NCBI GenBank assembly: GCA_963764725.1
Contig: CAVXTM010000018.1
Location: 160,001 to 224,000 of the forward strand
Direction: 5' to 3'
Length of the DNA stretch: 64,000 nucleotides
Origin: an uncultured Gammaproteobacteria bacterium
GTDB taxonomy: Bacteria; Pseudomonadota; Gammaproteobacteria; JACCXJ01
The notes under the pieces were generated by a model. The model made no database searches. It worked only from the letters and a program-made list of their open reading frames with translations, and had not been told where the DNA came from. Position 1 is the first letter of the stretch; each line of letters begins with the position of its first letter. Both the position numbers and the translations under genes were made by a program. Of this stretch, positions 43,907-62,802 are shown piece by piece.

Positions 43907-44570
43907 AGAGCTGAAGGCCGCGGTGCAGTGCCAGTGAACACTCTTCGGCTAACTTGCAGGGGAATCAGCAGAGGCGCCTCTTCTAATGATCTTATCGTGG
44001 TAGGCATGGCAACGCTGGAGATCGCCAGATAGGTGCTCCTAGCCGAGCCGCGTGGCCGTCAGAATCAAGGTCACCCCGAGCGGTGGACGAATGCGGTTTT
44101 TCACGGAGCGGAATCAAGCCGAGAGTGTGTTGCGCATGAGCCGCTTCGCTAGGCTATCTCCGCCGTATCGGAACGATTCGTCAATCCGGCGCCGAAGAAG
44201 GCGCGCGGTCACGAAGCGGGCGCCACACCGACCAAGTTCCAGTACCGAAGATCGTCGATGCGGGTGTTGTGGCGCGCCGCGAGCTCGCACAGCGATTCAC
44301 GCGAATAGCGGAGCGGAAGTGTCCCATGTCCCTATCGCGCGGGCCGAACAATGCCATTAGGGCCGGTACGGTCACGATGAGCCGCCCGCCCGGGCGGGTG
44401 AGCGGCCCAATAGTTTATAGTCTGCGACACGCGTACTGACGAAACCTACGGTCCTCGTTCTTCCAAGGTTTTCGTTCCCGGATAACGGTACCGCGAATGG
44501 ACTCGCACTTGCGTCTCCTGCTGGCAAGGGGGAGGATGGATGAGCGACACGGTGTTTCGCCGAGGTCTCG

Positions 44571-45596: not shown

Positions 45597-45723
45597 CAGC
45601 GCGGGCCCACCGCGTGCGAGTGGATCCCGTGCATTCCCTGTACGGAATGGCGGTATATAATAACTGGGACGACTTGACTATGCCGGATCGATGAGCGCAT
45701 TACTAGCATTCTTGGCCATCTGA

Positions 45724-46512
45724 ATGAACATTCAACTGACAGGCAAACGAGCGCTCGTCTGCGGAAGCAGCCAAGGGATTGGCAAGGCCATCGCTATCGA
45801 GTTGTCCCGACTCGGAGCCAGCGTAACCCTCTTCGCGCGTGATCGCGCGCGGCTCAATGAGGCAAAAGCCGCGCTCGCCATCGATCAGAATCGGCACCAT
45901 CATGTGCTGGTCGCCGATTTCAACCGGCCCGATGATCTGAAAGCGGCGCTCGCAGGCTACCTTCCTAAAACCGATCCCGTGCATATTCTGGTGAATAATA
46001 GCGGCGGGCCTCCACCCGGCGCGGCCTATCAAGCGGCACCCGAGGCCTACCTCGCTGCATTTTCACAGCACCTGCTCTGTAATCAGATCCTGGTGCAAGC
46101 GCTGCTGGAAGGCATGAAAGCCGCCGGCTATGGCCGCATCGTGAATATCATCTCGACCTCGGTGAAACAACCGATTCCCGGTCTTGGAGTCTCCAACACC
46201 GTGCGCGGCGCGGTCGCAAGCTGGGCCAAGACTCTGGCCGGCGAGCTCGGTCCTTTCGGCATCACCGTCAATAATGTCTTGCCGGGTTCGACGCGCACCG
46301 GCCGTCTGGCCGCGATCCTGGAAACGAAAGCGCGCGAATACCACCAAGCGCTGGCCGAGATCGAGGCGGCGGAAATGGCATCGATCCCGCTCCGGCGTTT
46401 CGCCGAGCCGCACGAGATCGCTTCGGCGGTCGCGTTTCTGTGCTCGCCGGCCGCCGCTTACATTACCGGGATCAACTTGCCGGTCGACGGCGGCCGCACT
46501 CAGAGCTTGTGA
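45724..46512 (+). CDS. SDR family oxidoreductase
   Basis: GSSQGIG, NNSGGPP, VDGG. Confidence 0.92.
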   Translation: MNIQLTGKRALVCGSSQGIGKAIAIELSRLGASVTLFARDRARLNEAKAALAIDQNRHHHVLVADFNRPDDLKAALAGYLPKTDPVHILVNNSGGPPPGAAYQAAPEAYLAAFSQHLLCNQILVQALLEGMKAAGYGRIVNIISTSVKQPIPGLGVSNTVRGAVASWAKTLAGELGPFGITVNNVLPGSTRTGRLAAILETKAREYHQALAEIEAAEMASIPLRRFAEPHEIASAVAFLCSPAAAYITGINLPVDGGRTQSL

Positions 46513-46654
46513 AAAAATCTACTGCGCTCGGGATCTCGCGTTCTGGCGGTGCTCGGAATCCTCATGTATTTCAACATACACTCCGGTTCCTGTGCTCCGG
46601 CGGAACGCGACTTCCCTTCGCTCGCGACGATTTTTTCAGAACCTCTCAGTGTCT

Positions 46655-48106
46655 ATGAATATGTTAGAGCGAATCGCCAATTACATCGACGGCCGGCTCG
46701 AAGCGCCCCGCTCCGGCGGTTATATCGATAACATCGAACCCGCCACCGGGCAGGTCTACTCCCTGACCCCGGATTCCGATTCGGCGGATCTCGAACAGGC
46801 GATGACGGCTGCCAGTCGCGCGTTTCCTGAGTGGTCGGCCTTGTCCGCCGAGGAACGCGCCCGGCTCTTGCTCGGCATCGCCGACCGTATCGAAGCGGAG
46901 ACGGAGCCGCTCGCCCGGGCCGAGAGCATCGACACCGGCAAGCCTATCAGCCTGGCCAGGCAGGTCGATATTCCCCGGGCGGTGGCGAATATGCGGTTCT
47001 TCGCCCATGCCATCACCCAGTTTGCGAGTGAAGCCCACAGCATGGGTGCGCTCGCCATCAACTACACCTTGCGGCACGCTTTGGGCGTGGTGGCATGCAT
47101 CTCGCCCTGGAACCTGCCGCTTTATATTTTGACCTGGAAGATCGCGCCGGCTCTCGCGAGCGGCAACTGTGTCATCGCTAAGCCGTCGGAAGTCACGCCG
47201 ATGACAGCGTATTTGCTCGCGCGGATCTGCATCGACCTAGGCTTGCCGAGAGGCGTCTTGAATATCCTTCACGGCGCGGGCCCGCGCATCGGCCGCGCGC
47301 TAGTCGCACACCCCAGGATCAAGGCGATTTCATTTACCGGCGGGACCCGGACCGGGGCAGAGATCGCACGCACCGCGGCGCCCCAGTTCAAAAAACTCTC
47401 ACTCGAGCTCGGGGGCAAGAACCCGACCTTGGTATTCGCCGATTGCGACTGGGATGCGACGCTCGCGACCACGGTGCGCGCCGCGTTCTCGAACCAGGGA
47501 CAGATCTGTTTGTGCGGCTCGCGCATCTTCGTCGAGCAGCCGATCTATGATCGCTTCCGGAGCGATTTCCTGGCCCGCACCGAAGCCTTGGAACTGGGCG
47601 ATCCGCTCGATGAGAAGACCCAGCAAGGCGCGCTCGTGTCCGAGTTACACCTGCACAAGGTGCTTTCCGCGATAGAGCTCGGCCAGCAAGAAGGCGGCAC
47701 GATCCTCGTCGGCGGTCACCGCGTGACGGTGCCGGGACGCTGCGCAGAGGGTTATTTCGTCAAGCCGACGGTATTCGAAGATTTGCCCTTCGATTGCCGC
47801 ACCAATCAGGAGGAGATCTTTGGCCCGGTCGCCACCTTGATTCCGTTCGAGGGCGAAACGCAAGTGCTAGAATATGCAAACAGCACCGAGTATGGCTTGG
47901 CGGCAACGGTTTGGAGCCGCGATGTGCAGCGCTGCCACCGCGTCGCTCAGCAGCTTGAGGCCGGGGTGGTGTGGATCAATACCTGGCTGGTGCGGGATCT
48001 GCGTACGCCTTTCGGCGGGACGAAACACTCCGGCGTCGGCCGCGAAGGGGGCGTGGAGGCCCTGCGCTTTTTTACCGAAACCAAGAACGTGTGCATAAAG
48101 CTGTAG
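46655..48106 (+). CDS. Aldehyde dehydrogenase, probable 2-aminomuconate semialdehyde dehydrogenase
   Basis: PWNLP, FTGGT, ELGGKN, GQICLCGSR, EEIFGP, RDLRTPFGG; gene context. Confidence 0.88.
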   Translation: MNMLERIANYIDGRLEAPRSGGYIDNIEPATGQVYSLTPDSDSADLEQAMTAASRAFPEWSALSAEERARLLLGIADRIEAETEPLARAESIDTGKPISLARQVDIPRAVANMRFFAHAITQFASEAHSMGALAINYTLRHALGVVACISPWNLPLYILTWKIAPALASGNCVIAKPSEVTPMTAYLLARICIDLGLPRGVLNILHGAGPRIGRALVAHPRIKAISFTGGTRTGAEIARTAAPQFKKLSLELGGKNPTLVFADCDWDATLATTVRAAFSNQGQICLCGSRIFVEQPIYDRFRSDFLARTEALELGDPLDEKTQQGALVSELHLHKVLSAIELGQQEGGTILVGGHRVTVPGRCAEGYFVKPTVFEDLPFDCRTNQEEIFGPVATLIPFEGETQVLEYANSTEYGLAATVWSRDVQRCHRVAQQLEAGVVWINTWLVRDLRTPFGGTKHSGVGREGGVEALRFFTETKNVCIKL

Positions 48107-48107
48107 A

Positions 48108-48524
48108 ATGTCTCATGCCATCGTCTCGCGAAACGCCCCCGAGCCGGTCGGACCCTATCCTCATGCACGCCGCGTGGGAAGTTTGCTATTCCTCTCGGGC
48201 ATCGGCCCCCGCCGACGCGGGAACCCGACCATCCCCGGCGTCACGCTCGATGCCAACGGAAATATCGTTGACTACGACATCGAGATCCAATGCCGTGCGG
48301 TGTTCGAGAATGTCAGAACCGTGCTCGACGAGGCTGGTTCAAGCTGGGATCGCCTGGTCGATGTCACGGTGTTTCTGACCGATCTCAAACGTGATTTCGA
48401 GACCTATAATCGCGTGTACGCGCAGTATTTCACGGACCACGGGCCTTGCCGCACCACCGTAGAGGTGAGCCGCCTGCCGACTCCGATCGCCATCGAGGTG
48501 AAATGCATCGCGACCATCGATTAG
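48108..48524 (+). CDS. RidA family protein, probable 2-aminomuconate deaminase
   Basis: [25 protein letters not shown]. Confidence 0.88.
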
Positions 48525-48541
48525 ATCCGCCGGAGACCTCC

Positions 48542-49063
48542 ATGCAACGACTTTCACCTCCGATTAATTTCCAGCGCTGGATCGACGCGCACCGCGAGAT
48601 CTTTAAGCCTCCGGTTTGCAACAAGCAGGTGTTCGAGGAAGGCGACTTCATCGTCATGGTTGTCGGCGGCCCCAATAATCGCAAGGACTACCACGTCGAT
48701 GAAGGGCCGGAGTTCTTCTACCAGCTTGAAGGCGACATGCTGCTCAAAACGATCCAAGACGGCATGGTAGTCGATATCGCGATTCGCCAAGGCGAAATCT
48801 TTCTGCTGCCGCCCAAGGTTCCTCATTCTCCACAACGCTACGCCAACACCGTCGGCCTCGTCATCGAGCGTAAGCGCCTCCCCCACGAGCAAGACGGACT
48901 GCAATGGTATTGCGACCACTGCCACGCGCTCCTATACGAAGAGTTCTTTCAGCTACGCAACATCGAGAAAGATTTCCCGCCCGTCTTCGAGCGCTTTTTT
49001 TCCAGCGAAAAACATAGGACCTGCGCGCGTTGCGGCGCGGTGATGGCGACGCCCGGGAGGTGA
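48542..49063 (+). CDS. nbaC: 3-hydroxyanthranilate 3,4-dioxygenase
   Basis: KPPVCNK, VGGPN.RKDYH..EGPEFF, VPHSPQR, two CxxC. Confidence 0.95.
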
Positions 49064-49071
49064 AAATATTT

Positions 49072-49162
49072 CGCCTGGGGCATCCCCCAGGCGACCAAGT
49101 GAGAGTTGCACTACTCCCCTTTGGAAACCCCAATGCTAAGGTTCCCGCGCAAGCGGCGGGTT
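49072..49162 (+). repeat. Three-hairpin GGAAACCCC repeat, copy 3
   Basis: CGCCTGGGG..CCCCAGGCG, GACC, CTCCCCTTTGGAAACCCC, hairpin. Confidence 0.8.
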
Positions 49163-49182
49163 ACTAATGAGTGAACCGGTTC

Positions 49183-50193
49183 ATGCTCAAGATCGACATC
49201 CATACGCACATCTTGCCTCCGCGTTGGCCTGATCTTAAAGAGCGCTACGGTTACGGAGGTTTTATACGGCTTGAGCATACCCGTTGCGGGCATGCGCGCC
49301 TGCTGAGGAACGGCGAGGTCTTTCGCGAGATCGGGGAGAATTGCTGGGACCCGGAGGCGCGGCTGCGCGAGTGCGAGGTCAGCGGGGTGGATGTGCAGGT
49401 GCTGTCCACGGTACCGGTGATGTTCAGTTACTGGGCGAAGCCGGAGCATACCCTTGACCTCTGCCGTCTTCTCAACGATCACATCGCCGGTGTGGTCGAA
49501 GCCCACTCTAAGCGTTTCGTTGGTCTCGGGAGCGTGCCGCTGCAGGACCCCGAGCTTGCCATCGAGGAGATGAAACGATGCATGCGCGAGTTGCGGCTGG
49601 CCGGGATCGAGATCGGTTCGCATGTCAATAGTTGGAACCTGGATGACGCACATCTGTTTCCAGTCTTCGAAGCGGCGCAAGCGCTCGGGGCCGCCGTATT
49701 CGTGCACCCTTGGGACATGCTGGGCAAAGAGCGCATGCCCAAGTATTGGCTTCCCTGGCTGGTGGGCATGCCGGCCGAAACCTCGCTCGCGATCTGCTCC
49801 ATGATCTTCGGCGGTGTCCTGGAAAGATTACCAGGCTTACGGGTGGCCTTCGCCCACGGCGGCGGCGCCTTTCCGGCGACCATTGGTCGCATCGAGCACG
49901 GCTACAAGGTGCGGCCCGATCTCTGTGCCGCGGACATTCCACATAGTCCCCGCGCCTACTTGTCACGCATCTACTTGGATTCGCTGGTGCATGATCCGCG
50001 CATGTTGCGCTACTTGATCGACCTCATGGGAGCCGAGCGCATCGCACTAGGATCGGACTATCCGTTCCCGCTCGGCGAGGTCGAACCGGGGAAGCTCATC
50101 GAGTCGGCCGGATTGGATGCAGAGACAAACGCGCGCCTGCTGCACGGCACCGCGTTGGAATGGCTCGATCTCCCCAAGGACAGGTTCGGTTGA
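49183..50193 (+). CDS. nbaD: ACMS decarboxylase (amidohydrolase)
   Basis: IDIHTH, FVHPWDM, WLVGMPAET, AHGGG, GSDYPFPLGE. Confidence 0.9.
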   Translation: MLKIDIHTHILPPRWPDLKERYGYGGFIRLEHTRCGHARLLRNGEVFREIGENCWDPEARLRECEVSGVDVQVLSTVPVMFSYWAKPEHTLDLCRLLNDHIAGVVEAHSKRFVGLGSVPLQDPELAIEEMKRCMRELRLAGIEIGSHVNSWNLDDAHLFPVFEAAQALGAAVFVHPWDMLGKERMPKYWLPWLVGMPAETSLAICSMIFGGVLERLPGLRVAFAHGGGAFPATIGRIEHGYKVRPDLCAADIPHSPRAYLSRIYLDSLVHDPRMLRYLIDLMGAERIALGSDYPFPLGEVEPGKLIESAGLDAETNARLLHGTALEWLDLPKDRFG

Positions 50194-51014
50194 TGGACAT
50201 GCGCATCACCTTGAGCGGCCAACGCTATAGGGTCAAACTCGATAGCCCAATAAGCCTCGCGATACCGCTCGCTTTCGGCGGCGCGCAGCCGAGCTTCTTC
50301 GGCGCGCCTCGGGCGAGCGCGGCGCCGCTCGCGATCGGGGGCTTCGTGGGTGACATCACCCAGGGCGGGAGTTGCAACGTCGCCGAGTTGCGGCTCGTGC
50401 CCCATTGCAACGGCACTCACACCGAATCGGTGGGCCATATCGTGCGTGAAGCGATGCCGATCGCCGCCTGTTTGACGCGAACGCTCATTCCGACCCGCGT
50501 CATCACCGTTACCCCCTCTGCAGCCGATGGGACCCAAGATCGATATATACCCGCCACAGAGAGCGATGATTGGCTCATCACCCGCGACGCATTGGAATTC
50601 GCGCTGCGCGATCTCGAGAGCGATGAGATCCAAGCATTGGCCATGCGTACCCTGCCCAACGATGAATCGAAGAAAAACCGGCGTTACGGGGACGCGTGCC
50701 GGCCGCCGTTTTTCTCCCTCGAGGCCATGCAAACGCTCATCGACCGCGGCGTGGAGCATGTGCTCGTAGACCTTCCCTCACTCGACAAGATGCATGACGA
50801 GGGGCGCTTGACCAATCATCACTTATTCTGGAACGTCCCCGCGGAAGGTCATGCGCTAACGGCTGAGACCAAGATTTTTAAGACAATCACCGAGATGATC
50901 TTCGTGCCCAATGAGGTACGAGATGGATGTTACCTGCTCGACCTCCAGGTACCCGCGTTTATGAGCGATGCCGCGCCGTCGAGGCCGGTGATCTATCCCT
51001 TGGAGCCGGCATGA
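50193..51014 (+). CDS. Cyclase family protein (kynurenine formamidase-like)
   Basis: PHCNGTHTE, DLPSLD, TITE, DAAPSRP. Confidence 0.85.
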   Translation: MDMRITLSGQRYRVKLDSPISLAIPLAFGGAQPSFFGAPRASAAPLAIGGFVGDITQGGSCNVAELRLVPHCNGTHTESVGHIVREAMPIAACLTRTLIPTRVITVTPSAADGTQDRYIPATESDDWLITRDALEFALRDLESDEIQALAMRTLPNDESKKNRRYGDACRPPFFSLEAMQTLIDRGVEHVLVDLPSLDKMHDEGRLTNHHLFWNVPAEGHALTAETKIFKTITEMIFVPNEVRDGCYLLDLQVPAFMSDAAPSRPVIYPLEPA

Positions 51015-51295
51015 CGGTATTGGAAATCCACGCCCTTAATGGGGAGACGGACATCGATCCAACCCCGGCACGAAAGCTCATCGAGCACGGCCGGCTACTG
51101 CGGCGGAAGGAGGATCTGAAGGGCGCGGAAGAAGGAGAGAGTGTCTCTCGAAGCGGTTGCTAGGCAAACATTAGCCGGCCACCATCCAATGACAGGGCGG
51201 GTTGGGCGTCGCTTTTTGCGCCGTAACTCGCCAAGCCGTTGGCCGCAGGCCGACTCTTCAACGTGCTTGCCAGCCCGCATTCCAAGGAGACGCGC
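50935..51295 (+). repeat. Diverged ~350-bp direct repeat, copy 1 (cyclase 3' end plus downstream)
   Basis: Matches 54128-54462. Confidence 0.85.
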
Positions 51296-51362
51296 TAACC
51301 CGCTGCCGGACGAAGCGCAGCGTAGTGGGCAGTCCTAGCTAGAGTTGATGCGATAGTTAGGC
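51291..51362 (-). other. attC site (truncated) downstream of higBA
   Basis: Minus strand GCCTAAC...GGTTAGCGCG; the cassette begins with GTTAGGT at 52057. Confidence 0.65.
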
Positions 51363-51371
51363 TTCAAGGCT

Positions 51372-51680
51372 CTACGCCGCGAGTTCTTGGAGAACTTCGG
51401 GATGGCGCTCGGCGATCTTGAGCAGAGTTTTCGCCGCCCCAGACGGTTTACGCCGGCCTTGCTCCCAGTCTTGCAAGGTGCGAACCGAGACCCCAAGGAG
51501 TGCAGCAAATGCAGGCTGCGATAATCCGGATGCAATCCGTGCCCGTGCTACTTCAGAGACACCCGGTTGGTGCGTGCGGCCACGAGCCTCAGCCTTCATT
51601 TCTCGCACGGAAGCGAGCAGTTCGGCCCCGATATCGCGCTTGGCATCGCGCGTATTCAATTCACGTTCGGTCTTAGGCAT
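51372..51680 (-). CDS. HigA-like HTH antitoxin
   Basis: LSQPAFAALLGVSVRTLQDWEQGRR. Confidence 0.9.
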   Translation of the reverse strand: MPKTERELNTRDAKRDIGAELLASVREMKAEARGRTHQPGVSEVARARIASGLSQPAFAALLGVSVRTLQDWEQGRRKPSGAAKTLLKIAERHPEVLQELAA

Positions 51681-51987
51681 TTTCGATTTCCTCCTTGATC
51701 CGGCGAAGCACATGTGAGGGGATGTTCTCTCTCGCACTCTTGCCATAGATCAACAGCAACCAGATTTCACCACGGGTGAGGCGATTGAAGTAGATAACCC
51801 TCACCCCGCCTCGCTTGCCACGGCCAGCGTAACTCCAGCGCACCTTGCGCACGCCGCCGGAACCAGGAACAACGTCACCGGCTTCGGGATTGGCTGCGAT
51901 ATAGGAGGCGAAGGTACTACGTTCCTCCTCGCTCCAGTAGTCGGCGGCTAGGCGCGAAAATGTTGGAGTTTCGATGACAGTGTACAA
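51673..51987 (-). CDS. RelE/HigB-2-like toxin
   Basis: GDVVPGSGGVRKVRW...GKRGGVRVIY. Confidence 0.9.
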   Translation of the reverse strand: MYTVIETPTFSRLAADYWSEEERSTFASYIAANPEAGDVVPGSGGVRKVRWSYAGRGKRGGVRVIYFNRLTRGEIWLLLIYGKSARENIPSHVLRRIKEEIENA

Positions 51988-51989
51988 AC

Positions 51990-52024
51990 GCCTAAATGTA
52001 CGGCATTGCCGTATCACCGTCAAT
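51990..52024 (-). promoter_or_regulatory. Sigma70-like promoter with palindromic operator for higBA
   Basis: TTGACG-N17-TACATT overlapping TACGGCAATGCCGTA. Confidence 0.65.
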
Positions 52025-52084
52025 GTCGGGTGACAGCCTCCTTACCGCAAACCTAACGCTTGAATGTCAGCGGGCGCCGGCCCA

Positions 52085-52297
52085 TCACGAAGCCGCAGCT
52101 TTCATTCGAGCCCCGGCCTCTTCCAGAAAGGCCACAACCTGCTCGCGCGTTACAGTTGGGAACCCCTCTAGGAAGTCGTCAATTGACTCACCGCCCGCCA
52201 GCTAGTCGAGAAGGGTCTGCACGGGGACACGGGTACCGGCAAACACGGGGGTGCCTCCCATAATGTCAGGCGCGCAGGTGACCAGTGGTACCATCAT
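52085..52297 (-). pseudogene. DUF433 protein with in-frame stop
   Basis: DIMGGTPVFAGTRVPVQTLLD*LAGGESIDDFLEGFP. Confidence 0.85.
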
Positions 52298-52311
52298 GGG
52301 GAGTAGCGTAA

Positions 52312-54034
52312 TCCCGAATCAGGCATAGGAGCAAGGTTAATATCTCTTAGTCCCTTATCCATGAAATCTTGTGCAAAAAAGCAAAGAGTGTCATGCATGA
52401 GCGGTATTGAGAGCAGGCATGACCACATACTCTCGGATAGCGAGTGCGCTGCTGAGCACACGACGACCGAATGTCGTGAGGTAGTACTTGTAGCGATGTC
52501 CAATCTTTTTGATGAGGCCATGGGTGCGCAAGCGTTTCAACCAGTAGGAGGCACGGCCGGTGGAGAGATCCCGGAGATGGGCTCGGAGATCGGAGGCGCG
52601 AAAGCCGCTGATGTTCCACTCCCCGCGGGCGAGGGTAATAAAAAGGCTATGATCTTCACCGAGGAAGAGATTGAAGCCCCGATAGGAGCGGTCTTTCTCT
52701 CGTACAGGTTTGGCCATTTTGTCGATGGCGTGCAGAGCTGCATTGGGGTTATCGATGCTGGCCATGAAGCTGAGATAGCGTTCATTGGCAGCATGCATCA
52801 GCTCTCGCAGATCGGGGAGGCTATAGATGTTTTTTCGCAGGGGTGCGAGTTTGAATTGCTTGCGCCCATTGCGTTGTTCCACCCAACGGTGGTGTTTGAA
52901 GAAGGAGACATCGTTGGCGGTGCATTCCACCCGAGCCATGAGACTGAATTTATCGTAGAGCTTGAGGCTTGCTGGTCCCATATGATGGCGGATGCGTGTA
53001 CCCTGAATGCGGGTGTGAAAATCGTTACCGGCCTCCCCGCTGAAGGCCGAGGTGAGTTTGCGTCCCAAGAAGGTGGCGACGTGTTCTGCCTTGAGGGCAT
53101 GCACGGCGGTACGCACGATGGCTTGATAGAGGGGTTGGAAATCGGCTTGGCGGTGGAAGATGACATCGGTCGAGAAAGCCAGGGCCAGGGAGTGGCCCTG
53201 CTTGGCGCGCCGAGGATGCAACTCCACCTGCATGAAGCTCCAGTGATAACCAGCGCGAAACTGACCCAAGATAGGACAGAAGCTTTTCGCCCATCGGTCC
53301 AAACGCCGATGCAAGCCTTTGGGATCGAGGCTATCGGCAAGCGCCTGAGCCTGTTGGGGATCGCCGATGGACAAGAAGGCATTATCGGCGCGCTCAAAGG
53401 CGATCCCTGTCTTGGTCAGTCGTTGGGCTAACCAGTGATGGCCGTTCAAATAGACCTGCAGGCGAAACGGTGCCCAGGTGGGTACTCGGACATAACAGAG
53501 CCCGAAGATCTCATCGATGAAATAGAAGTAATAATGCAAACACTTGCCCGGGGTAGACTTCAAACGGGTCGTATGCTGAAGCTTGTCATGCCAGGGGCGA
53601 TACGAAGGACAGGCCTCCATCGCCGAGAAGATATGCACCAGCCCCGGGTGCTCACCGCGCAAAGCCAAAATCGCTTTGATCCGTTCTTCTTTACGAAACG
53701 CCTTGTAATGACGGATGAATTCAATTTCCAACGAAGCCTCAGCGGCCAGCCGCTCGGCATGGGTCCGAAGCGCCTCGCGCAGCGGTTCTGCCCAGCGGGG
53801 ATAGTCAAACAGACGCATACCCCGGACACCCAAATACCGGGCCATAGCCTCGGCATGGGCGATCTCCGGAAGCGTGCCAGTGATCACGATGCGGTCAAAG
53901 CAACAAAGCACCGCGGCGATCTTCTCTTGATGGCGTTCAACAAAGGAGTTCATGGCGACGACCCATCTCAGTTCTTATTGCCCATCCGCCAGAATAGTAC
54001 ATTCAACACCTTGGTTCCGGCTATGCCGGGTTAG
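52312..54034 (-). mobile_element. Putative Rep_trans-like mobile element with hairpin end
   Basis: Single 520-aa ORF; upstream end CTAAC-CCGGC-ATA-GCCGG-AA-CCAAG; degenerate inverted copy at 52312-52336. Confidence 0.65.
52391..53953 (-). CDS. Putative rolling-circle-type transposase (Rep_trans-like core plus C-terminal wHTH)
   Basis: QVE[15-aa insertion]FSTD, KLYDK, RVE motifs; C-terminal wHTH (LKRLRTHGLIKKIGHRYKYYLT). Confidence 0.6.
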   Translation of the reverse strand: MNSFVERHQEKIAAVLCCFDRIVITGTLPEIAHAEAMARYLGVRGMRLFDYPRWAEPLREALRTHAERLAAEASLEIEFIRHYKAFRKEERIKAILALRGEHPGLVHIFSAMEACPSYRPWHDKLQHTTRLKSTPGKCLHYYFYFIDEIFGLCYVRVPTWAPFRLQVYLNGHHWLAQRLTKTGIAFERADNAFLSIGDPQQAQALADSLDPKGLHRRLDRWAKSFCPILGQFRAGYHWSFMQVELHPRRAKQGHSLALAFSTDVIFHRQADFQPLYQAIVRTAVHALKAEHVATFLGRKLTSAFSGEAGNDFHTRIQGTRIRHHMGPASLKLYDKFSLMARVECTANDVSFFKHHRWVEQRNGRKQFKLAPLRKNIYSLPDLRELMHAANERYLSFMASIDNPNAALHAIDKMAKPVREKDRSYRGFNLFLGEDHSLFITLARGEWNISGFRASDLRAHLRDLSTGRASYWLKRLRTHGLIKKIGHRYKYYLTTFGRRVLSSALAIREYVVMPALNTAHA

Positions 54035-54105
54035 GGTAAGTAGCCTCTGTTACCAGAAGCCTCCGCACAAACCCGGACGTACAGTTTTTCCCGCATCCGG
54101 TTCCT
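54035..54105 (-). other. Group II intron 3' fragment (domains V-VI)
   Basis: GAACCGGATGCGGGAAAAACTGTACGTCCGGGTTT followed by GTGCGGAGGCTTCTGGTAACAGAGGCTACTTACCC. Confidence 0.8.
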
Positions 54106-54127
54106 CGGTTTTACTCGCTTTCGCGCT

Positions 54128-54462
54128 TGCTCGATCTCCAGGTACCCGCGTTTATGAGCGATGCCGCGCCGTCCAGGCCGGTGATTTATCCCTTGGAACC
54201 GGCATGAGGACATTGGAAATCCACGCCCTTAATGGGGAGAAGGCCATCGATCCAACCTCGGCTCGGAAGCTCATCGAACACTGCGGCTACTGGCGGCGCA
54301 ACCAGGAGCTGAAGGGCGCGAAAGAAGCTGCGAAGCCCTGGACGGCCACCATCCAATGTAGGGCGGGTTGGGCGTCGCTTTTTGCGCCGTAACCCGCCAA
54401 GCCGTCGGCCGCAGGCCGACTCTTGAATGTCCTTGCCAGCCCAAATTCTAAGGTGACGCGCT
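54128..54462 (+). repeat. Diverged direct repeat, copy 2
   Basis: Matches 50935-51295. Confidence 0.85.
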
Positions 54463-54516
54463 CCGCGCGTTGGATCGGTGCGTTACGGCGTACAAAGCAC
54501 GCCTAACGCACGCTAC
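54358..54516. repeat. GTAG-type REP doublet (REPIN-like)
   Basis: GTAGGGCGGGTT..AACCCGCC ... GGTGCGTTACGGCG..CGCCTAACGCACGCTAC; partial copies at ~51192 and 56650-56769. Confidence 0.75.
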
Positions 54517-55042
54517 ATTTACTTACTTGATGAACATGCGCCAAAGCTCAATAAACTTTTCGTAATTTATTAACATGCTGACTATTGTAACCAAAGTAAC
54601 TACTATGGTTAAGATTAGCATTCTGTTTTGGGGCGCGATCTTGACACTACACCGACACGATACGAACCTGAGGAAAATAGACTACCAGGCACTCCTTTCA
54701 ATATTTTCAACCAGCTCGTTGCCCTTCTTTATATTTGGAAATAGTTTCTTTAAACCACCACTTAAGCGGTCAATATCTTCTAACTCGAAAACCTCGATTA
54801 ACACTAACTCTCGGTACCTGAGCTCTGTACCTTCTGGAGCTCGGCTGCTGGCATAACACCGCTCAGACCATTTTCTTTGGTGCTCCCTGGTGAGTTGTAA
54901 GCTATATATTAGTCCTCCCTGAAATCTCGGTAACATCTCCGCCCAATCAAGATACTTCTTGGCGAGGAAAGGTTTTATCTTTCTTAATGACAACAAATTC
55001 AATGCCTCGTGTTCTAGATCTCGCAGATCACGCTGCTTACGA

Positions 55043-55114
55043 GCCTACCGAGCGCGAGTTGAGGGGCGAAGCCGCAAGCGCAGCGCCGCGGCGCCGCTCG
55101 AACGAGAGTTGGAC
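55043..55114 (-). other. attC site
   Basis: Minus strand GTCCAAC-TCTCGTTCGAGCGG ... CCCCTCAACTCGCGCTC-GGTAGGC. Confidence 0.7.
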
Positions 55115-55331
55115 GGCGCGCAGCGCCGGACAACTTGACGTGAGACAACTCGCGCTCCGTTGGTTCGCGCGCTTAGCACCCTCACGGTCGCGGCCATCAA
55201 AACCTGTGATCCTATCCATGCTCATCTCCCGTTCTAAAGGCCATGGCCCCGGCGCTGCGCGCCGACCAAACAACAAAAGGTTTACCGGGCGCGACGCTAG
55301 GAGCGCTCCAGTGCAGCGCCTGGTGGAGACG

Positions 55332-55544
55332 TTAAAGATCCTGGGGCCTCAGCCCTGTGCGCTTTCCGATCCGAGCCAGCATTCGCGGCCCAATCTCGTC
55401 GCTGTCGTGAAATGCGAAAACGAAATCCTGAAACCCCGGCTTGGCTAGGGTTCGGTGAGACCCGGACGATCGCGTCTCGACCCAGCCGATTCGCTCTAGC
55501 GCTGCGAGAACTCGCTTGGCCTTCGTGCTCGGCCATTGAGTCAT
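55332..55544 (-). CDS. HicA family toxin
   Basis: LERIGW...SGSHRTL...FAFH...IGPRML. Confidence 0.88.
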   Translation of the reverse strand: MTQWPSTKAKRVLAALERIGWVETRSSGSHRTLAKPGFQDFVFAFHDSDEIGPRMLARIGKRTGLRPQDL

Positions 55545-55747
55545 GCAGCGGCGAACGTAATATGAATCGGTTCAACCGGCTGCTCTCCATGCTCGATTCG
55601 GTCCGCAATTACGCGCAGGGCCAACGCTTCCGCTTGTGCAATCGCTTCTTCACGGCTCTGTCCATACTTCAGTACACCGGGAATCTCAGAAACTTCAGCG
55701 ATCCATCGGCCGTCTTCTTCCCGCTCCGTCTCTACCGTGAATATCAT
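55541..55747 (-). CDS. HicB family antitoxin
   Basis: EREEDGRWIAEV.EIPGV..YG.SREEAI. Confidence 0.9.
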   Translation of the reverse strand: MIFTVETEREEDGRWIAEVSEIPGVLKYGQSREEAIAQAEALALRVIADRIEHGEQPVEPIHITFAAA

Positions 55748-55947
55748 TAACCATACCTCTTATGTTCTTTTTACGTCCAACAGAGCGCGAGTTGAGCGGC
55801 GCCCTTGAATACACTTCAACCGCAAAGTCATAACCCAAACCCACCTCACACCCTTCGTAATACTCGATGGTGGACAAACTCAGCCTCTGCCTCCGGGTGG
55901 ACCATGTATTTCACGTCGCGAGTCTGTTCCAGATTCTTTTGAATACT

Positions 55948-56163
55948 TCATCTCCCCCCGTATGGAAAGCGATGGACGATAGCCCGACGGATGAGTCCAC
56001 GCACGCGAGGAAACTGCTGTGGCCCAGCTCGGACTTGCTCCAACTTGGAATCGACCACCGCCATAAACTCCGCACCCAAGCCGGAACGCTGTTCCTCATG
56101 CCACTGAAACGCTTCAGCGAGATCATCAAGCGCTTCAGGCCGGAAAATGATTGCCAGGCTCAC
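55948..56163 (-). CDS. RelE/ParE toxin, C-terminus probably disrupted
   Basis: FRPEALDDL...GLGAEF...HRFPY. Confidence 0.75.
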   Translation of the reverse strand: MSLAIIFRPEALDDLAEAFQWHEEQRSGLGAEFMAVVDSKLEQVRAGPQQFPRVRGLIRRAIVHRFPYGGR

Positions 56164-56381
56164 GCGCCACCGAGGATACGGCGCTTGACCTCCTCCCAGG
56201 GAATACCTTCAGAAGGATTGGCCTGATATGCTGCGATGCGCCGATCAAGCTCCTCAGCCTGCCACGGCAACAGTTCAACTTGCTCGGGGTGCTCCGCAAC
56301 GCTATCCCAAATAGCTTCGACGATGCGAATGCGTTCCTGAACGGGAAGGTTTAGGACTTCAGAGAGATTGATAGCGCTCAT
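56160..56381 (-). CDS. Addiction-module antitoxin (TIGR02574-like)
   Basis: LPVQERIRIVEAIWDS...ELDRR...WEEVK. Confidence 0.88.
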   Translation of the reverse strand: MSAINLSEVLNLPVQERIRIVEAIWDSVAEHPEQVELLPWQAEELDRRIAAYQANPSEGIPWEEVKRRILGGA

Positions 56382-57070
56382 ATGGCTCCCGATATACCAG
56401 TTTGTTTCTAATCGGTAATTATAACCGCTAACGCAGCGCGAGTTGAGGCGCTCCTTGACGGGGAGAAAGACGAAATCTTTCGATCGAGTCAGAGGGGCGA
56501 AGCCGCAAGCGCAGCGCTGCGGCTCCGCTCTGGGTTTTGTTCCTCAACCCCGCCCATCGCGCTTGAGCGTACCGTTGGCCGACGGGTTCAATACCGGATT
56601 GGGTCGAGTCTCCCTGGTCCGCCGAAGCATTGACAGCCGCGCGAACGGACAAAAGCCGTCGGCCGCAGGCCGACTTTTCAACGTGCTTGCCAGCCCGAAT
56701 TCCAAGGTGACGCGCTGCGCGTCGGATCGGTGCGTTACGGCGTAAAAAGCACGCCTAACGCACCCTACATCCACTACGATTTCTGGCTGCGTTTTGTGAC
56801 GACGAGGCCTGGCAGCAAGGTAGCCCCCCCGTATGCAGCGCAGCGGAGAACGGGGAATGCGGTGCGCAAGCTGTTTCCCGAATTCCGGTCACTCCATCCA
56901 GGCTTTCATGTCGACAGCGCCGGCGGAAGAGGCCGCACGTTTCGCTATGATTTTCCCAGCGATCTAATCACGCCGCCGTCCGGAGAAGCCTCGATCGAAT
57001 CCTTAAAATCGCCTTAGGAGCCGTCGATTAGTATCTCAACTGAAACCTATGTAGGCTAAGTATTAGCTAA

Positions 57071-57346
<276 letters not shown>

Positions 57347-57444
57347 TGCGTGCGCTTAAAAAATACCCGGTAACACCGCCAGAGCGTATCGCAGTCCGAG
57401 CGTCATTAAACGCGTACCCCGCGGTCTTGCCGCGGGTACCTTAG

Positions 57445-59394
57445 CCCGATCTTCTTGATGATTTTATCTCTATCCATATGAGTAGATTAATATAAAAGCT
57501 TTATTGTGCCTCATTGTGTACCCATGTATAGTTGGCATATAGGCTTGTTTATCAGCGTTGTACGTGGTACAGTGCGTGGCCATGTACGTGGAGAAAGTCC
57601 CCAACCGTAACTCCCCACCGGCCATTCTCCTGCGGGAGTCCTACCGCGAGGGCAAGCGCGTCCTCAAACGTACCCTCGCCAACCTCACCGACTGGCCCGC
57701 ACACCTCGTCGAGGGCCTGCGTACCCTCCTTCAGGGAGGCACGGTCATCAAACACTTCGAGGAGAGCTTCGACATCGTCCGCTCACTGCCGCATGGACAT
57801 GTCGCCGCCGTGCTCGGCACGCTCCGTAAGCTTGGGCTGGAGAAGCTCATCGCCCCCAAGCGATCTCCAGAACGGGATCGTGTCGTCGCGATGATCGTCG
57901 CGCGTCTGCTCGATCCCCGATCGAAGCTCGCCACCGCGCGCGGCTTCGGGGAAGAGAGCGCCGCAACGAGCTTGGGGGAAGCGCTCGAGGTCGAATCAGC
58001 GCAAGCCGAAGACTTGTACGCCGCGATGGATTGGCTGCAAGCACGGCAGGGAGAGATCGAAAGGACAATCGCCGAGCAACATCTCCACGACGGCGCGCTC
58101 GTGCTCTACGATGTGAGCTCTACCTATTTTGAAGGTCAGTGCTGTCCACTCGCCCGCTTGGGCTATTCCCGTGACGGGAAGCAAGATAAACTGCAGATCG
58201 TCTTTGGTCTTTTATGCAATCGCGAAGGCTGTCCCATCGCCGTGGAGGTTTTCGAGGGCAATACCGCCGATCCGAAGACGCTCGGGGCCCAAATCGAGAA
58301 GCTGCGCACGCGCTTTGGGCTGACGCGGATCGTGTTGGTGGGTGATCGGGGGATGATGACCGAAGCGCGGATCCGAGAGGACCTCAAGCCCCTCGAAGGC
58401 GTGGATTGGATCACGGCGTTGCGGGCACCGGCTATCCGTGCGTTGGTCGAGGCGAAAGATATCCAGCTCTCGATTTTCGATGCGCAGGACTTGGCCGAGA
58501 TCACCAGTTCCGCCTATCCCGCTGAACGACTCATCGTCTGTAAGAATCCCCTCTTGGCCGAAGCACGCGCGCAACAACGCGAGTCGCTCTTACAGGCCAC
58601 CGAGCGCGAACTTAATCAGATCGTCGCCGCTACCCAAAGAGCCCAACGTGCCTTGAAAGGTCAAGCGCAGATCGGGCTGCGGGTGGGCAAAGTCATCGGC
58701 CGATTCAAGATGGCTAAGCATTTTAAGCTTGCTATCTCCGAGGAGCGTTTTGCCTATGAGCGCGATACCCAGCGCATCCACGAGGAAGCCGCGCTCGATG
58801 GGATCTACGTCCTCCGTACGAGTGTGCCCAAAGAGATGCTTGAGAGCGCGCAGACCGTACGTGCCTATAAGGATCTCGCGCATGTCGAACGGGCCTTCCG
58901 TAGCTACAAAAGCGTCGATCTGAAAGTCCGGCCTATCTACCACTACCTCGCCGATCGCGTCCGTGCGCATGTCTTCCTCTGCATGCTGGCCTATTACCTG
59001 GAGTGGCATCTGCGCAAGGCGCTTGCACCACTGCTCTTTGACGATGACGATAAACCGAGCGCCGATAAACAACGTGCCTCCATCGTTGCCCCGGCGAAAG
59101 TCTCCCCCAAGGCCGAACAGAAGGCCCACACGCGACGCACCGAAGAGGGTCTCCCGGTGCACAGCTTCCAAACACTTTTGGCCGATCTCGCCACCATCAC
59201 CAAGAACCGTATTCAACCCAAACTCCAAGGCGCAGCGCCCTTCGATCAGATCACTCGGCCCACCACCTTACAACGCCATGCCTTCAAACTCCTGGGCGTA
59301 AAAGTGTAACGATGTACCCAGTAGCAGAATTATGATTTTTTAATTTACTATGTATTATCATGGCATTACGCTGAGACTCCGAAAGAAGATCGGG
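57445..59394 (+). mobile_element. IS1634-family insertion sequence, 1950 bp
   Basis: 12-bp TIR CCCGATCTTCTT / AAGAAGATCGGG; TTAG duplicated at 57441-57444 and 59395-59398. Confidence 0.92.
57582..59309 (+). CDS. IS1634 family DDE transposase
   Basis: LRESYRE, LYDVSSTYFEG, GYSRD, VGDRGM, YK.L..VERAFR, RAHVFLCMLAY. Confidence 0.95.
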   Translation: MYVEKVPNRNSPPAILLRESYREGKRVLKRTLANLTDWPAHLVEGLRTLLQGGTVIKHFEESFDIVRSLPHGHVAAVLGTLRKLGLEKLIAPKRSPERDRVVAMIVARLLDPRSKLATARGFGEESAATSLGEALEVESAQAEDLYAAMDWLQARQGEIERTIAEQHLHDGALVLYDVSSTYFEGQCCPLARLGYSRDGKQDKLQIVFGLLCNREGCPIAVEVFEGNTADPKTLGAQIEKLRTRFGLTRIVLVGDRGMMTEARIREDLKPLEGVDWITALRAPAIRALVEAKDIQLSIFDAQDLAEITSSAYPAERLIVCKNPLLAEARAQQRESLLQATERELNQIVAATQRAQRALKGQAQIGLRVGKVIGRFKMAKHFKLAISEERFAYERDTQRIHEEAALDGIYVLRTSVPKEMLESAQTVRAYKDLAHVERAFRSYKSVDLKVRPIYHYLADRVRAHVFLCMLAYYLEWHLRKALAPLLFDDDDKPSADKQRASIVAPAKVSPKAEQKAHTRRTEEGLPVHSFQTLLADLATITKNRIQPKLQGAAPFDQITRPTTLQRHAFKLLGVKV

Positions 59395-59467
59395 TTAGCG
59401 ATGGGGTTTCCAAAGGGAAGAAGCGCAGCTCTCCCCTTTGGTCAAGGGCGGGGTTCATACCCCGCCC
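59395..59467 (-). repeat. Three-hairpin GGAAACCCC repeat, copy 4 (other part at 57415-57444), split by IS1634
   Basis: Rejoined flanks match copies 1-3 in reverse complement. Confidence 0.85.
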
Positions 59468-59482
59468 GCGAAGTATATTAGT

Positions 59483-60223
59483 TTACTGCTGATTTTCCAC
59501 GCCAAGCTCCTCCTCGCTTAAGTCAGTCGCTTCGTAGCTCTTGTGGCGGATGTCCCTGCCCTCCACCAGATAGATGATGCTTTCACAAATATTACTGGCG
59601 TGGTCGCCGATCCGCTCGAGCGATTTCACCGCCCAGGCCGTATCCAGAACGCGCGTGATGCTGCGCGGGTCTTCCATCATGTAGGTAATCAACTGGCGCA
59701 TGATGGCGTCGTATTCGAGATCCACGTTATGGTCTTTGCGCGCTATCCCCAGGGCCACTTGAGCATCCATTCGCGCTAATGCATCGAGCGCATCATGGAG
59801 ATTTGCTTGCACGTGTTTGCCCATGTGCAGGACCCCCACGTAATAGGCTTTCGGGCCCTCTGTTTCCGTCAAGCGTATGACCACACGCGCGATCTTCTTG
59901 GACTCATCACCGACGCGTTCTAGGTCAGTGATGATTCGTGTGATGGCGAGCACGAGCCTCAAGTCGCTGGCTGCGGGTTGCCGGCGCGCCAGGATCTCCG
60001 CGCAGGCCCGGTCGATCGCGACCTCCATGGCATTGACTTTAAAGTCATTGCTGGCCGCGATCTCGGCCAATCCCGGGTTCCCTTGAACCAGCGCCTCTAT
60101 CGCTTTTTTCAGGTGTTCTTCGACCATCCCCCCCATTTCCAAGACGCGCGCCCGAACGTCTTCGAGCTCGTTATCGAACTGATGGGAGATGTGTTGCGGG
60201 AGTTTCGTCGCGGTCATCGGCAC
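59483..60223 (-). CDS. phoU: Phosphate signalling protein PhoU
   Basis: RRQPAASDLR, DLERVGD, MMEDPRSI, ERIGDHA. Confidence 0.97.
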   Translation of the reverse strand: MPMTATKLPQHISHQFDNELEDVRARVLEMGGMVEEHLKKAIEALVQGNPGLAEIAASNDFKVNAMEVAIDRACAEILARRQPAASDLRLVLAITRIITDLERVGDESKKIARVVIRLTETEGPKAYYVGVLHMGKHVQANLHDALDALARMDAQVALGIARKDHNVDLEYDAIMRQLITYMMEDPRSITRVLDTAWAVKSLERIGDHASNICESIIYLVEGRDIRHKSYEATDLSEEELGVENQQ

Positions 60224-60271
60224 GGCCTCTGAAGTGAGTGGATATTACATCGTTCTACGCACGGCGACGGA

Positions 60272-61159
60272 TTAACCATAACGGCCGGTAATGTAGTCCT
60301 CGGTCTGTTTCTTCTTGGGATTGGTAAAGATCACCTTCGTGTCGTCGAACTCGATGAGATCGCCGACATACATGAGCGCCGTATAATCGGAGACCCGTGC
60401 CGCCTGCTGCATGTTGTGCGTGACGATGACGATCGTGTACTGCGACTTCAGCTCGTACATCAAATCTTCAATTTTCAAGGTCGAGAGCGGATCCAAGGCC
60501 GAGGCGGGTTCATCCAACAATAATACTTCGGGCTCGATGGCGATCGCGCGCGCGATGACCAAGCGTTGTTGCTGTCCGCCGGAAAGGGCCATGGCGCTTT
60601 CGTTCAACCTATCTTTCACCTCATCCCAAAGCGCCGCGGCCCTGAGCGAGCGTTCCACGGCCTGATCGAGGGCGCGCCTTTTGTTGATGCCCTGAAGCCG
60701 CAGGCCGTAAGCGACGTTTTCATAGACCGATTTCGGAAAAGGATTGGGCTTTTGAAACACCATGCCGATGCGGCGCCTGAGATCGGCCACATTGACGTCC
60801 GGATCATAGATATTCTTGCTCTGCAAATGGATGGCCCCTTCGATGCGCACGCTGTCGTAGAGATCGTTCATGCGGTTGAAACAACGCAGCAAGGTCGACT
60901 TTCCGCAGCCGCTGGGGCCGATAAAAGCTGTCACCTGGCGCTCCGGGATCGACATCGTGATCGCGTTGAGCGCGCGTTTTTCCCCATAGTAGAGATTGAG
61001 CCCCTCGACGCCCAGGCATTCCTTGACATCCGTCTCGGGTGCCGCCTCGGGCTCGTGGCGTTGCAAGAGCTTCGGGTCGAACCCGTGAGTAAGCCCCGAG
61101 GGAGCGGTCCGCCGCTCATCGGCTGTGTCCATAGTCTCCACCTCAATATTCCGCGGCAC
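60272..61159 (-). CDS. pstB: Phosphate ABC transporter ATPase
   Basis: [37 protein letters not shown]. Confidence 0.97.
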
Positions 61160-62777: not shown

Positions 62778-62802
62778 CTCTCGAAATACCGCCGTTCCGC
62801 GT

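Follow-up and report, generated by a model that had tools for sequence, protein, structure and literature searches.

A single-gene repeat unit in the window

We analysed a 64,000-nt stretch of DNA, called here the window, from an uncultured Gammaproteobacteria bacterium (assembly GCA_963764725.1, contig CAVXTM010000018.1, positions 160,001 to 224,000). An original prediction, made from the letters alone, had placed at window positions 52312-54034 a candidate transposon with hairpin ends and a Rep_trans-like nuclease. We found at this locus a repeat unit of 1689 bp on the minus strand (52347-54035), delimited by blastn, junction alignments, and empty sites, and common to all copies; the truly inserted segment is most likely 52351-54034. 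The sole gene of the unit is an open reading frame (ORF) on the minus strand (52391-53953) that encodes a putative transposase of 520 amino acids (aa), compared to a family norm of ≈505 aa, with an insert of 15 aa in this copy. About 80 nt of the unit lie upstream and about 45 nt downstream of the ORF. Comparison of the window with other loci of the same genome showed that copies align only within 52347-54035, with a sharp stop on both sides. The 520-aa ORF of the original prediction is real, and the left boundary predicted for the element, 52312, was ≈35 nt off. The degenerate inverted copy that had been seen on the left lies outside the element, in the flank (52312-52346).

The same genome (4.2 Mb, 19 contigs) contains 25 protein matches to the transposase, and the element is present there in about a dozen copies. 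Five copies are full length and share 99.1-100% DNA identity (contigs C1, C5, C9, and C15, and the window copy on C18); three variant copies show 93-97% identity (C10, C13, and C16), two copies are broken by other insertions (C11 and C18), and truncated pieces are present besides. The ORF is intact in four copies at 99-100% identity and in the C10 variant (95%). A 52%-identical paralogue in this genome has ends of this type as well. Within the genome, the 5' end motif is confined to copies of the element, and no ORF-less derivatives were found there. Multicopy occurrence and empty sites, which the original prediction had proposed to look for, were both found. The presence of several copies in this and 10 other genomes, the sharp boundaries, and two empty sites strongly support the claim of a stand-alone mobile element, and the conclusion that the window element is one copy of an unclassified insertion sequence (IS) family is well supported.

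Distribution of the family and its annotation as a regulator

Of 8000 candidates scored in a word-indexed search, 7825 proved to be relatives. The 120 best-scoring ones measure 500-513 aa and are all devoid of precomputed Pfam domains; most lie on contigs of 1.6-2.5 kb, as is the case for repeats in short-read assemblies. An exhaustive phmmer search gave 7489 clusters at 50% identity (E up to 1e-3). Scanning one genome per species yielded at least 590 pattern matches and at least 509 confirmed relatives, from which the best 80 loci were kept for work on ends and junctions across phyla. These 80 loci are spread over Gammaproteobacteria, Desulfobacterota, Acidobacteriota, Nitrospirota, Planctomycetota, Armatimonadota, Gemmatimonadota, Chloroflexota, Actinomycetota, and others. 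In 10 other genomes, each with two to five loci, the unit common to the copies measures 1644-1734 bp and holds only this ORF, except for one pair that shares 3900 bp because both copies are inside a group II intron. Protein identity across phyla is ≈50%, while the DNA ends are almost the same.

Searches of Pfam, NCBIfam, PHROGs, and PDB sequences gave no match to the protein apart from a weak winged helix at approximately aa 440-510 (window positions 52424-52636, minus strand). The Pfam model HVO_A0261_N matches 29 of 63 family members (best E of 1.7e-6), HTH_45 matches 15 of the 63, and a PDB MarR chain matches the C-terminal region with an E of 0.017. The predicted C-terminal winged helix-turn-helix was therefore recovered by Pfam, PHROG, and PDB comparisons, but weakly and below curated cut-offs. 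Relatives that carry a name are called 'MarR family transcriptional regulator' or 'hypothetical protein', and plasmid-borne homologues are called 'ArsR family' or 'hypothetical'; the expectation that automatic annotation would report a MarR/HTH regulator was thus correct, since NCBI names it a MarR or ArsR regulator. The feature neighbours of one homologue (P0057) are only unnamed 'hypothetical protein' clusters. MarR and ArsR regulators are typically ≈150 aa long, consist of one winged helix plus dimerisation helices, and are encoded by single-copy genes. A plain regulator of this type was rejected for a protein that is 505-520 aa long, multicopy, and mobile, and resembles a winged helix only at aa 440-510. 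No longer fused forms were present among proteins of 911-2600 aa, which is weak evidence, and hhalign comparison of the N-terminal half with the core detected no internal repeat.

NCBIfam IS models did not recognise the protein, and a full-text search of the published literature returned no Rep_trans-type or otherwise matching transposase or IS family. The statement that no named IS family fits the element agrees with these negative results and with the lack of a Pfam match. We conclude that the element probably defines a new insertion-sequence family.

Two different ends and a conserved 5' hairpin

The 5' end of the family is near-identical across phyla and consists of CC(T/C)AACC, CGG-N5-CCG, and then GAACCAAA(CAGG); where the end begins with CTAACC, the hairpin that follows is CCGG-N5-CCGG. 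The 3' end reads GGTAAG(G/A)NA, then CTA (consensus GGTAAGGNA). The two ends differ from each other: their only likeness is a 7-nt imperfect inverted match (CCTAACC compared to CCTTACC), which lies a few bases out of step, and true terminal inverted repeats are lacking. In the window copy, whose end features are all on the minus strand, CCTAACC occupies 54029-54035, where the first C (54035) is target-derived and CTAACC is element-borne. It is followed by the subterminal hairpin CCGGC-ATA-GCCGG (54017-54029, gene strand) and, 3' of the hairpin, by AACCAAG (54010-54016), which is part of the conserved GAACCAAA(CAGG) box and falls in invariant columns A20-A25 of alignment A5. The box GAACCAAACAGG beside the 5' hairpin is a candidate binding site for the winged helix. 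At the other end, a second subterminal hairpin with a 6-bp stem, one bulge, and an A6/T6 loop lies past the stop codon (52368-52386). The 3' terminal motif GGATAAGGGA (52351-52360), conforming to the consensus GGTAAGGNA conserved in family-wide 3' ends, adjoins a target-derived CTAA (TTAG as written; 52347-52350) that is present once in both empty sites. The 3' junction reads GGTAAGGGA|CTAA, and the predicted circle junction would be GGTAAGGGA-CTAACC.

The 5' hairpin is convincing because it is conserved across phyla and not because of its folding energy. Across 20 distinct lineages, 96% of cells in the stem are paired, the loop varies freely, and two stem pairs show compensatory double changes (C:G to T:A). 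Only 3 of 500 column shuffles matched this pairing, and slid registers pair in 2-40% of cells. By contrast, the folding energy alone is unremarkable (z of -1.7 to -1.8), with 13 of 200 shuffles folding as well. The hairpin end at 54017-54029 (CCGGC-TAT-GCCGG as written) that had been pointed out from the sequence is accordingly real. The 3' hairpin of the window copy folds with a z of -2.2 to -2.5; across 37 lineages the mean z is -0.75, with 11 of the 37 below -1.5, and RNAalifold gave no consensus structure for the 3' end. This hairpin could be a terminator or an end structure. In a Sedimentisphaerales genome (loci L094-L096), the unit has an extra CTAATAC ahead of the 5' CTAACC and ≈40 extra nt, including a hairpin, past a 3' CTAATAC; these may be shifted boundaries or captured flanking DNA.

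Insertion next to CTA(A/G) without target duplication

Two empty sites define the junctions. In genome G328, ten intact copies of a group II intron, recognised by an Rfam match, read ...ACC CTAG CGG..., and in two interrupted copies the left side is ...ACC CTAACC-hairpin and the right side ...GGTAAGAGA CTAG CGG.... In the genome of the window, a paralogous region on C5 reads ...CAC CTAA CAG..., and the right side of the filled site on C10 reads ...GGGA CTAA CAG.... These sites imply that the CTA(A/G) at the 3' end and the C before the 5' CTAACC belong to the target. The reverse assignment, in which CCTAA would be the target on the 5' side and the element would bring in the 3' CTAA, was rejected, since the CTAA or CTAG found at the 3' junction is already present in each of the two empty sites.

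We compared 37 distinct insertions, made up of 29 of the 80 loci that passed both end-motif patterns with enough flank plus eight from the genome of the window, with one duplicate removed. The base at -1 is C in 36 of the 37 and A in the remaining copy, which directly follows the 3' end of another element in a head-to-tail arrangement. The presence of CTA at the 3' side in all 37 is in part a product of the search pattern, and deviant 3' ends occur at L056 (CTG), L118 (CTT), L049 (ATA), and L078. At the fourth base past this CTA, 30 insertions have A, 4 have G, 2 have T, and 1 has C; copies that are 100% identical differ from each other at this base. Moreover, six insertions from five lineages start with CCA, yet have CTA at the 3' flank. 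The variation of the fourth base, which is unlike on the two sides, excludes a 4-bp target duplication, and the six insertions with CCA on one side and CTA on the other exclude a 3-bp target duplication. Thus, the two empty sites and the 37 insertions show that the element inserts without target duplication. The simplest reading is that the segment C(T/C)AACC...GGTAAGGNA is placed immediately 5' of C|CTAR, and that the first bases of the element imitate the target.

Flanks of two copies were searched in 30 relatives and 5 same-genus genomes, where they are unconserved as DNA and gave no empty site. In 20 public sequencing runs, a fraction of 0.20-0.28 of the words sampled from a 6.5-kb query was present, approximately the share of the IS. 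No contig bridging the insertion site was listed in the four public runs that were aligned; the fit of one 771-nt contig of run X4 ends at 52349 and is followed by 24 further letters, and no empty site could be read from this contig. A metagenome pattern scan gave 0 matches for the left flank of the window copy and 0 for a natural head-to-tail junction, from which we draw no conclusion. Continuity of ORFs over virtual junctions was uninformative, as most copies are intergenic.

The group II intron of G328 (Rfam RF02003 and RF00029) is present in at least 13 full copies, besides ≈20 derivatives that have internal deletions and no ORF (L122-L131, L051, L053, and L130). The new IS lies near the 5' end of the intron in two copies, and L130 shows the reverse nesting, with the intron inserted into an IS copy just past GAACCAA.

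One composite and one head-to-tail junction bear on how ends are used. The C10 composite has a precise 3' end and a disrupted 5' end, where the end of a 984-bp repeat takes the place of the first 2-3 bases. The block carries 956 bp of this repeat, and its far end is joined exactly at a C|CTAA target. This composite is no more than a hint of missed termination at the lost end of a rolling-circle element, in which case transfer would involve the bottom strand and run from the gene-distal end towards the hairpin end. Judged from its translation, the 984-bp repeat is a fragment of an IS4-like transposase gene. Its copies lie at C9:6183-7166, C14:15741-16724, C12:57079-58042, and C10:265770-266724; the right end contains CCTAAC, and the C9 copy is inside an IS91-like element, without duplication. 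Among the 80 loci there is one head-to-tail junction with a single CTAA, at L074:158-200, where a 29-nt remnant of an IS 3' end stands directly before the 5' end of a full copy. The remnant is either a right-junction target that was used or a relic of a tandem or circle junction.

Conserved residues and a putative tyrosine nickase

Alignment A1 contains 63 family sequences, down to 28% identity. Residues D20, R21, G104, E113, Y142, Y144, G151, P162, N170, L175, N191, E244, K331, Y333, R341, and E343 are invariant, and D263, G318, and K335 are conserved in at least 90% of the sequences; a D-N-x-F motif occupies positions 190-193. In the window copy (minus strand), the invariant N-terminal acidic motif C-F-D-R with D20-R21 lies at 53891-53896, Q-x-E244 and F-S-T-D263 bracket the insert at 53165-53224, and K331-x-Y333-x-K335 together with R341-x-E343, a candidate catalytic tyrosine hairpin, lies at 52925-52963. 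The ORF does read Q-V-E, 15-aa insert, F-S-T-D, K-L-Y-D-K, and R-V-E in the order first reported. We extended the comparison to three plasmid homologues, two from Mycobacterium (23.2% identity, best tblastn match) and one from Paraburkholderia (48%). All three keep D20, R21, N170, N191, E244, K-x-Y-x-K, and R-x-E; D263, E113, Y142, and Y144 are not kept in all of them. E113 is missing in one distant homologue, and D263 is T or N in both Mycobacterium homologues. Of the 'E-x3-D' pair that had been singled out, E244 is therefore invariant and D263 is lost in distant relatives.

On a Mycobacterium riyadhense plasmid (L132:2483-5903), two distant homologues stand in tandem beside IS4-family transposase genes; the tblastn match at 23.2% identity is to the first of them. 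The second M. riyadhense plasmid homologue has lost E113, Y142, and Y144 and keeps D20, E244, K-x-Y-x-K, and R-x-E.

These features are consistent with a model in which the element moves by single-strand transfer driven by a tyrosine nickase, which we regard as plausible and slightly more likely than not. The 505-520 aa protein would be the transposase. Its N-terminal 440 aa would form a metal-dependent tyrosine nuclease, with Y333 in K-x-Y-x-K on a beta-hairpin, facing R341-x-E343, and with D20, E244, and E343 as candidate acidic ligands; the C-terminal winged helix would bind the conserved subterminal box and the hairpin. The nuclease would nick one strand at N|C(T/C)AA, which occurs at both element boundaries and at the target, and the single strand would be moved by a rolling-circle or peel-and-paste route, as in the HUH elements IS91 and IS200/IS605, but with a non-HUH enzyme. 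The proposal that the enzyme is neither a DDE nor an HUH transposase received indirect support, as there is no target duplication, no real terminal inverted repeat, no conserved H-U-H motif, and no match to a Pfam family of either kind.

Several observations weigh against this model. The 3' hairpin is not universal and holds a constant position in part of the 37 lineages. We found no evidence of a circle junction or of single-stranded DNA, and the one head-to-tail junction among 80 loci joins a short remnant and not a full copy. An insertion accompanied by a 31-bp deletion explains the C10 composite equally well. Finally, in a genome with seven copies, copies 9.5 and 12 kb apart are in opposite orientation, which argues against a strict replication-strand bias, such as that of IS608 and ISDra2.

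Possible kinship with Rep_trans initiators

The fold of the putative nuclease may be the TATA-binding protein (TBP)-like fold of Rep_trans. As described in the sections of PMC5714925 drawn on here, Rep_trans proteins carry motifs N' (D), I (RxD), II (T/SxY/ExG), III (YxKxxE), and IV (W/LxRxE); their tyrosine is carried by a beta-strand, and three acidic residues serve as metal ligands. A legend of PMC13107129 gives the ligands as D46, D142, and E214. Searching 301 genomes of the same phylum, 9 of which had a match, provided 10 Rep_trans genes, and the set was widened to 30 non-redundant proteins. The invariants of the 10 proteins are R-x-D-x3-D, F, G, Y-x-K, and W-x-R-x-E. In the new family, D20, Q-x-E244(-x3-D), F266, G318, K-x-Y333-x-K335, and R341-x-E343 follow in Rep_trans order, so that seven invariant positions stand in the same order in both families, and the best local hhalign alignment, which is non-significant, places G...YDK...RxE in register with the Rep_trans motifs. 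The likeness to Rep_trans initiators and MOBT relaxases (PF02486: pT181 RepC/RepD, CTXphi RstA, and ICEBs1 NicK) thus comprises an N-terminal D, an acidic strand, G, Y-x-K, and R-x-E in this order, a tyrosine in a segment with a beta-strand pattern, and a hairpin-bearing substrate. By contrast, the new family has a larger catalytic region (440 aa), would function in transposition instead of replication or conjugation, and shows no significant similarity.

The statistical comparisons and several details of the motifs count against this kinship. Pfam hmmscan returned no Rep_trans match at E≤1 for 63 members or at E≤10 for 10 members, and the PF02486, PF25227, and PF05144 models match no IS copy of the window's genome at E≤10. 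Comparison by hhalign with the 10 and the 30 Rep_trans proteins gave probabilities below 1% (E of 0.08-0.59), and the best hmmsearch --max scores of 3.4-5.4 bits, compared to -1.0 to 0.2 for reversed controls, are non-significant. The spacer between Y-x-K and R-x-E is 5 aa, not ≈12 as in Rep_trans. In the new family, motif III (Y-x-K-x-x-E) lacks its E, motif I its R, and motif IV its W/L, and not all homologues keep the second acidic residue of 'E-x3-D'. In addition, the invariant Y142 and Y144 are without a Rep_trans counterpart. Of the label 'Rep_trans-like' there remains the collinearity of the invariants with motifs N' and I-IV; no significant result came from hmmscan, hhalign, or hmmsearch with reversed-sequence controls.

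A precedent bears on these negative results. According to the portion of PMC13107129 used here, Rep-Arvir initiators combine a Rep_trans-like domain with a MarR-like winged helix, are annotated as regulators, and have a kinship to Rep_trans that is invisible to sequence methods. By this precedent, the sequence negatives do not refute the Rep_trans idea, nor is it confirmed. The new family resembles Rep-Arvir (DUF7845, PF25227), as portrayed there, in its large N-terminal nuclease domain (putative here) followed by a MarR-like winged helix, in its annotation as a regulator, in its hairpin substrate, and in a Rep_trans kinship that would be structural only, if any. It differs in that Rep-Arvir are replication proteins of archaeal viruses and plasmids with another tyrosine motif, and PF25227 matches nothing in the genome of the window at E≤10.

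Within the nickase model, we regard Rep_trans ancestry of the transposase, the unproven and weakest step of our interpretation, as conceivable and somewhat short of an even bet. With the same reserve, the element may found a transposon family that would be the first to rely on a Rep_trans/TBP-fold tyrosine nuclease. If true, this would be a transposase class independent of DDE, HUH, tyrosine- and serine-recombinase, DEDD, and Cas1 enzymes, widespread and hidden as 'MarR regulators'. Rolling-circle initiators of plasmids, filamentous phages, integrative and conjugative elements, and archaeal Rep-Arvir would be linked to insertion sequences, as HUH Reps are to IS91 and IS200, and transposons would have arisen from each of the two known kinds of rolling-circle initiator. 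The abstract of the Replitrons preprint names only HUH groups as Rep-mobilised transposons.

A nickase whose fold is unrelated to Rep_trans, with the collinearity of D/E/G/Y-x-K/R-x-E due to convergence or chance, overlaps our nickase model and seems to us unlikely, though the most serious of the alternatives. It would account for the non-significance of all profile and HMM comparisons with Rep_trans, for the different motif spacings, and for the lack of counterparts of the invariant Y142 and Y144. It fits less well with the seven invariant positions that stand in the same order in both families, and with Rep-Arvir, a true Rep_trans relative that is undetectable by sequence and has the same MarR-like winged helix.

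Alternatives to single-strand transfer

Rather doubtful, and slightly more so than an unrelated fold, is a double-stranded circle that integrates by conservative site-specific recombination. A new kind of recombinase would exchange strands, with no single-stranded intermediate, inside a core of 2-3 nt (C-T-A or T-A) that the circle junction (...GGGA-CTA-ACC...) has in common with the target C-CTA-R. In 31 of the 37 insertions the first three bases of the element (CTA) equal the target-derived 3' flank, the ends are asymmetric like att sites, conserved Y, R, and K residues are available, close copies occur in both orientations, and the head-to-tail junction has a single CTAA. However, the 5' CCA and 3' CTA of the other six insertions imply that an identical 3-nt core is not required, Pfam and NCBIfam show no similarity to tyrosine, serine, or DEDD recombinases, and the compensatory changes of the conserved hairpin suggest recognition of unpaired DNA.

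The flanks and the acidic residues also bear on another alternative, in which a highly diverged DDE transposase with an RNase H fold would act by cut-and-paste at a strict C-CTA target and duplicate 3 bp (CTA). CTA on both flanks in 31 of 37 copies, the invariant acidic residues D20, E113, E244, and E343, and the D-N-x-F at 190-193 are compatible with such an enzyme. We consider it improbable, given the six insertions with CCA on the left and CTA on the right, the lack of terminal inverted repeats beyond the 7-nt offset match, the absence of any DDE family match in Pfam or NCBIfam, and the loss of E113 in one distant homologue. Members of the IS5 group have a DDE_Tnp_1 transposase and terminal inverted repeats and make a 4-bp YTAR duplication. 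Assignment to this group was rejected on the absent DDE match, the fourth base, which differs between the two sides, and the CCA/CTA mismatch in 6 of 37 insertions.

The least credible alternative, which we judge very improbable, is that the ORF is a DNA-binding regulator or passenger mobilised in trans, for example by a resident IS91-family or other nickase: the winged helix is the only recognisable domain and an IS91-family element with a similar NTAA target is present in the same genome, but the repeat contains nothing besides the ORF and the ends, which have stayed together in many phyla, invariant D, E, Y, K, and R residues occur in the ≈440 aa that do not belong to the winged helix, and the genome of the window has no ORF-less derivatives.

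Comparison with known insertion sequences

Like IS91/ISCR elements, the new IS has a single transposase gene, two different ends, no terminal inverted repeats, and no direct repeats, and a specific tetranucleotide target abuts one end; co-mobilisation of adjacent DNA is possible in both, with one composite (C10) in the new family. For IS91, the sections of PMC5714925 cited above describe the lack of inverted and direct repeats and, for IS91-type elements, co-mobilisation of adjacent DNA when an end is missed. Unlike IS91/ISCR, the new family shows no HUH motif and no Y2_Tnp or zinc-finger match, has a C-terminal winged helix, and uses the target C|CTAR. Membership in IS91/ISCR was rejected: the ends and target agree, and an HUH Y2 transposase was not found by Pfam, NCBIfam, or alignment A1.

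The genome of the window also has an IS91-family element that, from its translations, encodes a Y2 HUH transposase and a tyrosine-recombinase/integrase and is unrelated in sequence to the new IS. It occurs at window positions ≈22893-22936 (C18:182893-182936), at C7:102556-104850, and at C13 from 48572 downwards. In seven copies its gene-distal end always follows NTAA (CTAA in three, ATAA in three, and GTAA in one), and one copy abuts the 3' CTAA of the new IS.

With IS200/IS605 elements, the new family shares a subterminal hairpin (conserved with covariation at the 5' end, present at the 3' end in part of 37 lineages), sequence-specific insertion without duplication beside a short target, and an element end that resembles the target, as in IS608. 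It differs in having no Y1_Tnp match, a protein ≈3 times larger, only the 5' hairpin universal, a target 3' of the insertion point (gene strand), and no strict orientation bias in the one seven-copy genome. Pfam and NCBIfam found no HUH Y1 TnpA, and IS200/IS605 membership was rejected. Likewise, IS110, with its DEDD transposase and serine domain, was rejected, as neither Pfam nor NCBIfam gave a match.

Insertion sequences are classed by transposase chemistry, and the list of chemistries is short and stable. The new family possibly represents a new chemical class of transposase. A family of thousands in many phyla escapes Pfam, NCBIfam, and the IS naming rules of annotation, and it is consequently counted as a regulator, its insertions being missed in mobilome and pseudogene analyses. 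The strict short target (C|CTAR), lack of duplication, compact size, and near-invariant 30-nt end are attractive features; the element could become a tool for site-directed insertion of single-stranded DNA and offers a tractable model for a possibly new nuclease class.

A REP-derived insert and the surroundings of the window copy

The insert seen within 'E-x3-D' is real and consists of a 45-bp repetitive extragenic palindrome (REP)-like hairpin repeat, in frame in the ORF (53177-53221). The window copy and all near-identical siblings carry these 45 bp between E244 and F-S-T-D; exactly these 45 bp are absent from the C10, C13, and C16 variants, and metagenome contigs of three of the four aligned public runs skip them. 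The insert sits between two T-T dinucleotides of the transposase gene. Stand-alone copies of the repeat (≈43-48 nt) number 14 by blastn to 18 by blastn-short in the genome of the window, for example at C1:2656-2703, C10:131161-131204, and C18:697033-697079, and many copies are present in 14 of 14 relatives of the same family (partly unpublished genomes). The lineage with the insert is the recently multiplied one, and the only intact ORF without it is that of the C10 variant; the insert-bearing copy may be mobilised in trans by this sole intact insert-less copy. The two broken copies are interrupted at different places. At C11:177653-180499, 1154 bp are inserted within the REP-like insert, and at C18:264423-267500, ≈1.38 kb are inserted with an 8-bp duplication of element positions 1011-1018.

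Around the window copy, Rfam gave no matches in positions 44000-64000. Repeated units of 36-200 nt lie at 50935-51296, 54128-54523, 55035-55099, 55768-55803, and 56419-56775, spaced 0.65-3.2 kb apart, and from this spacing a cassette-like setting, or candidate array, around the element is plausible. Small gene pairs between these repeats resemble, by eye, toxin-antitoxin modules (HigB/HigA-, HicA/HicB-, and ParE-like).

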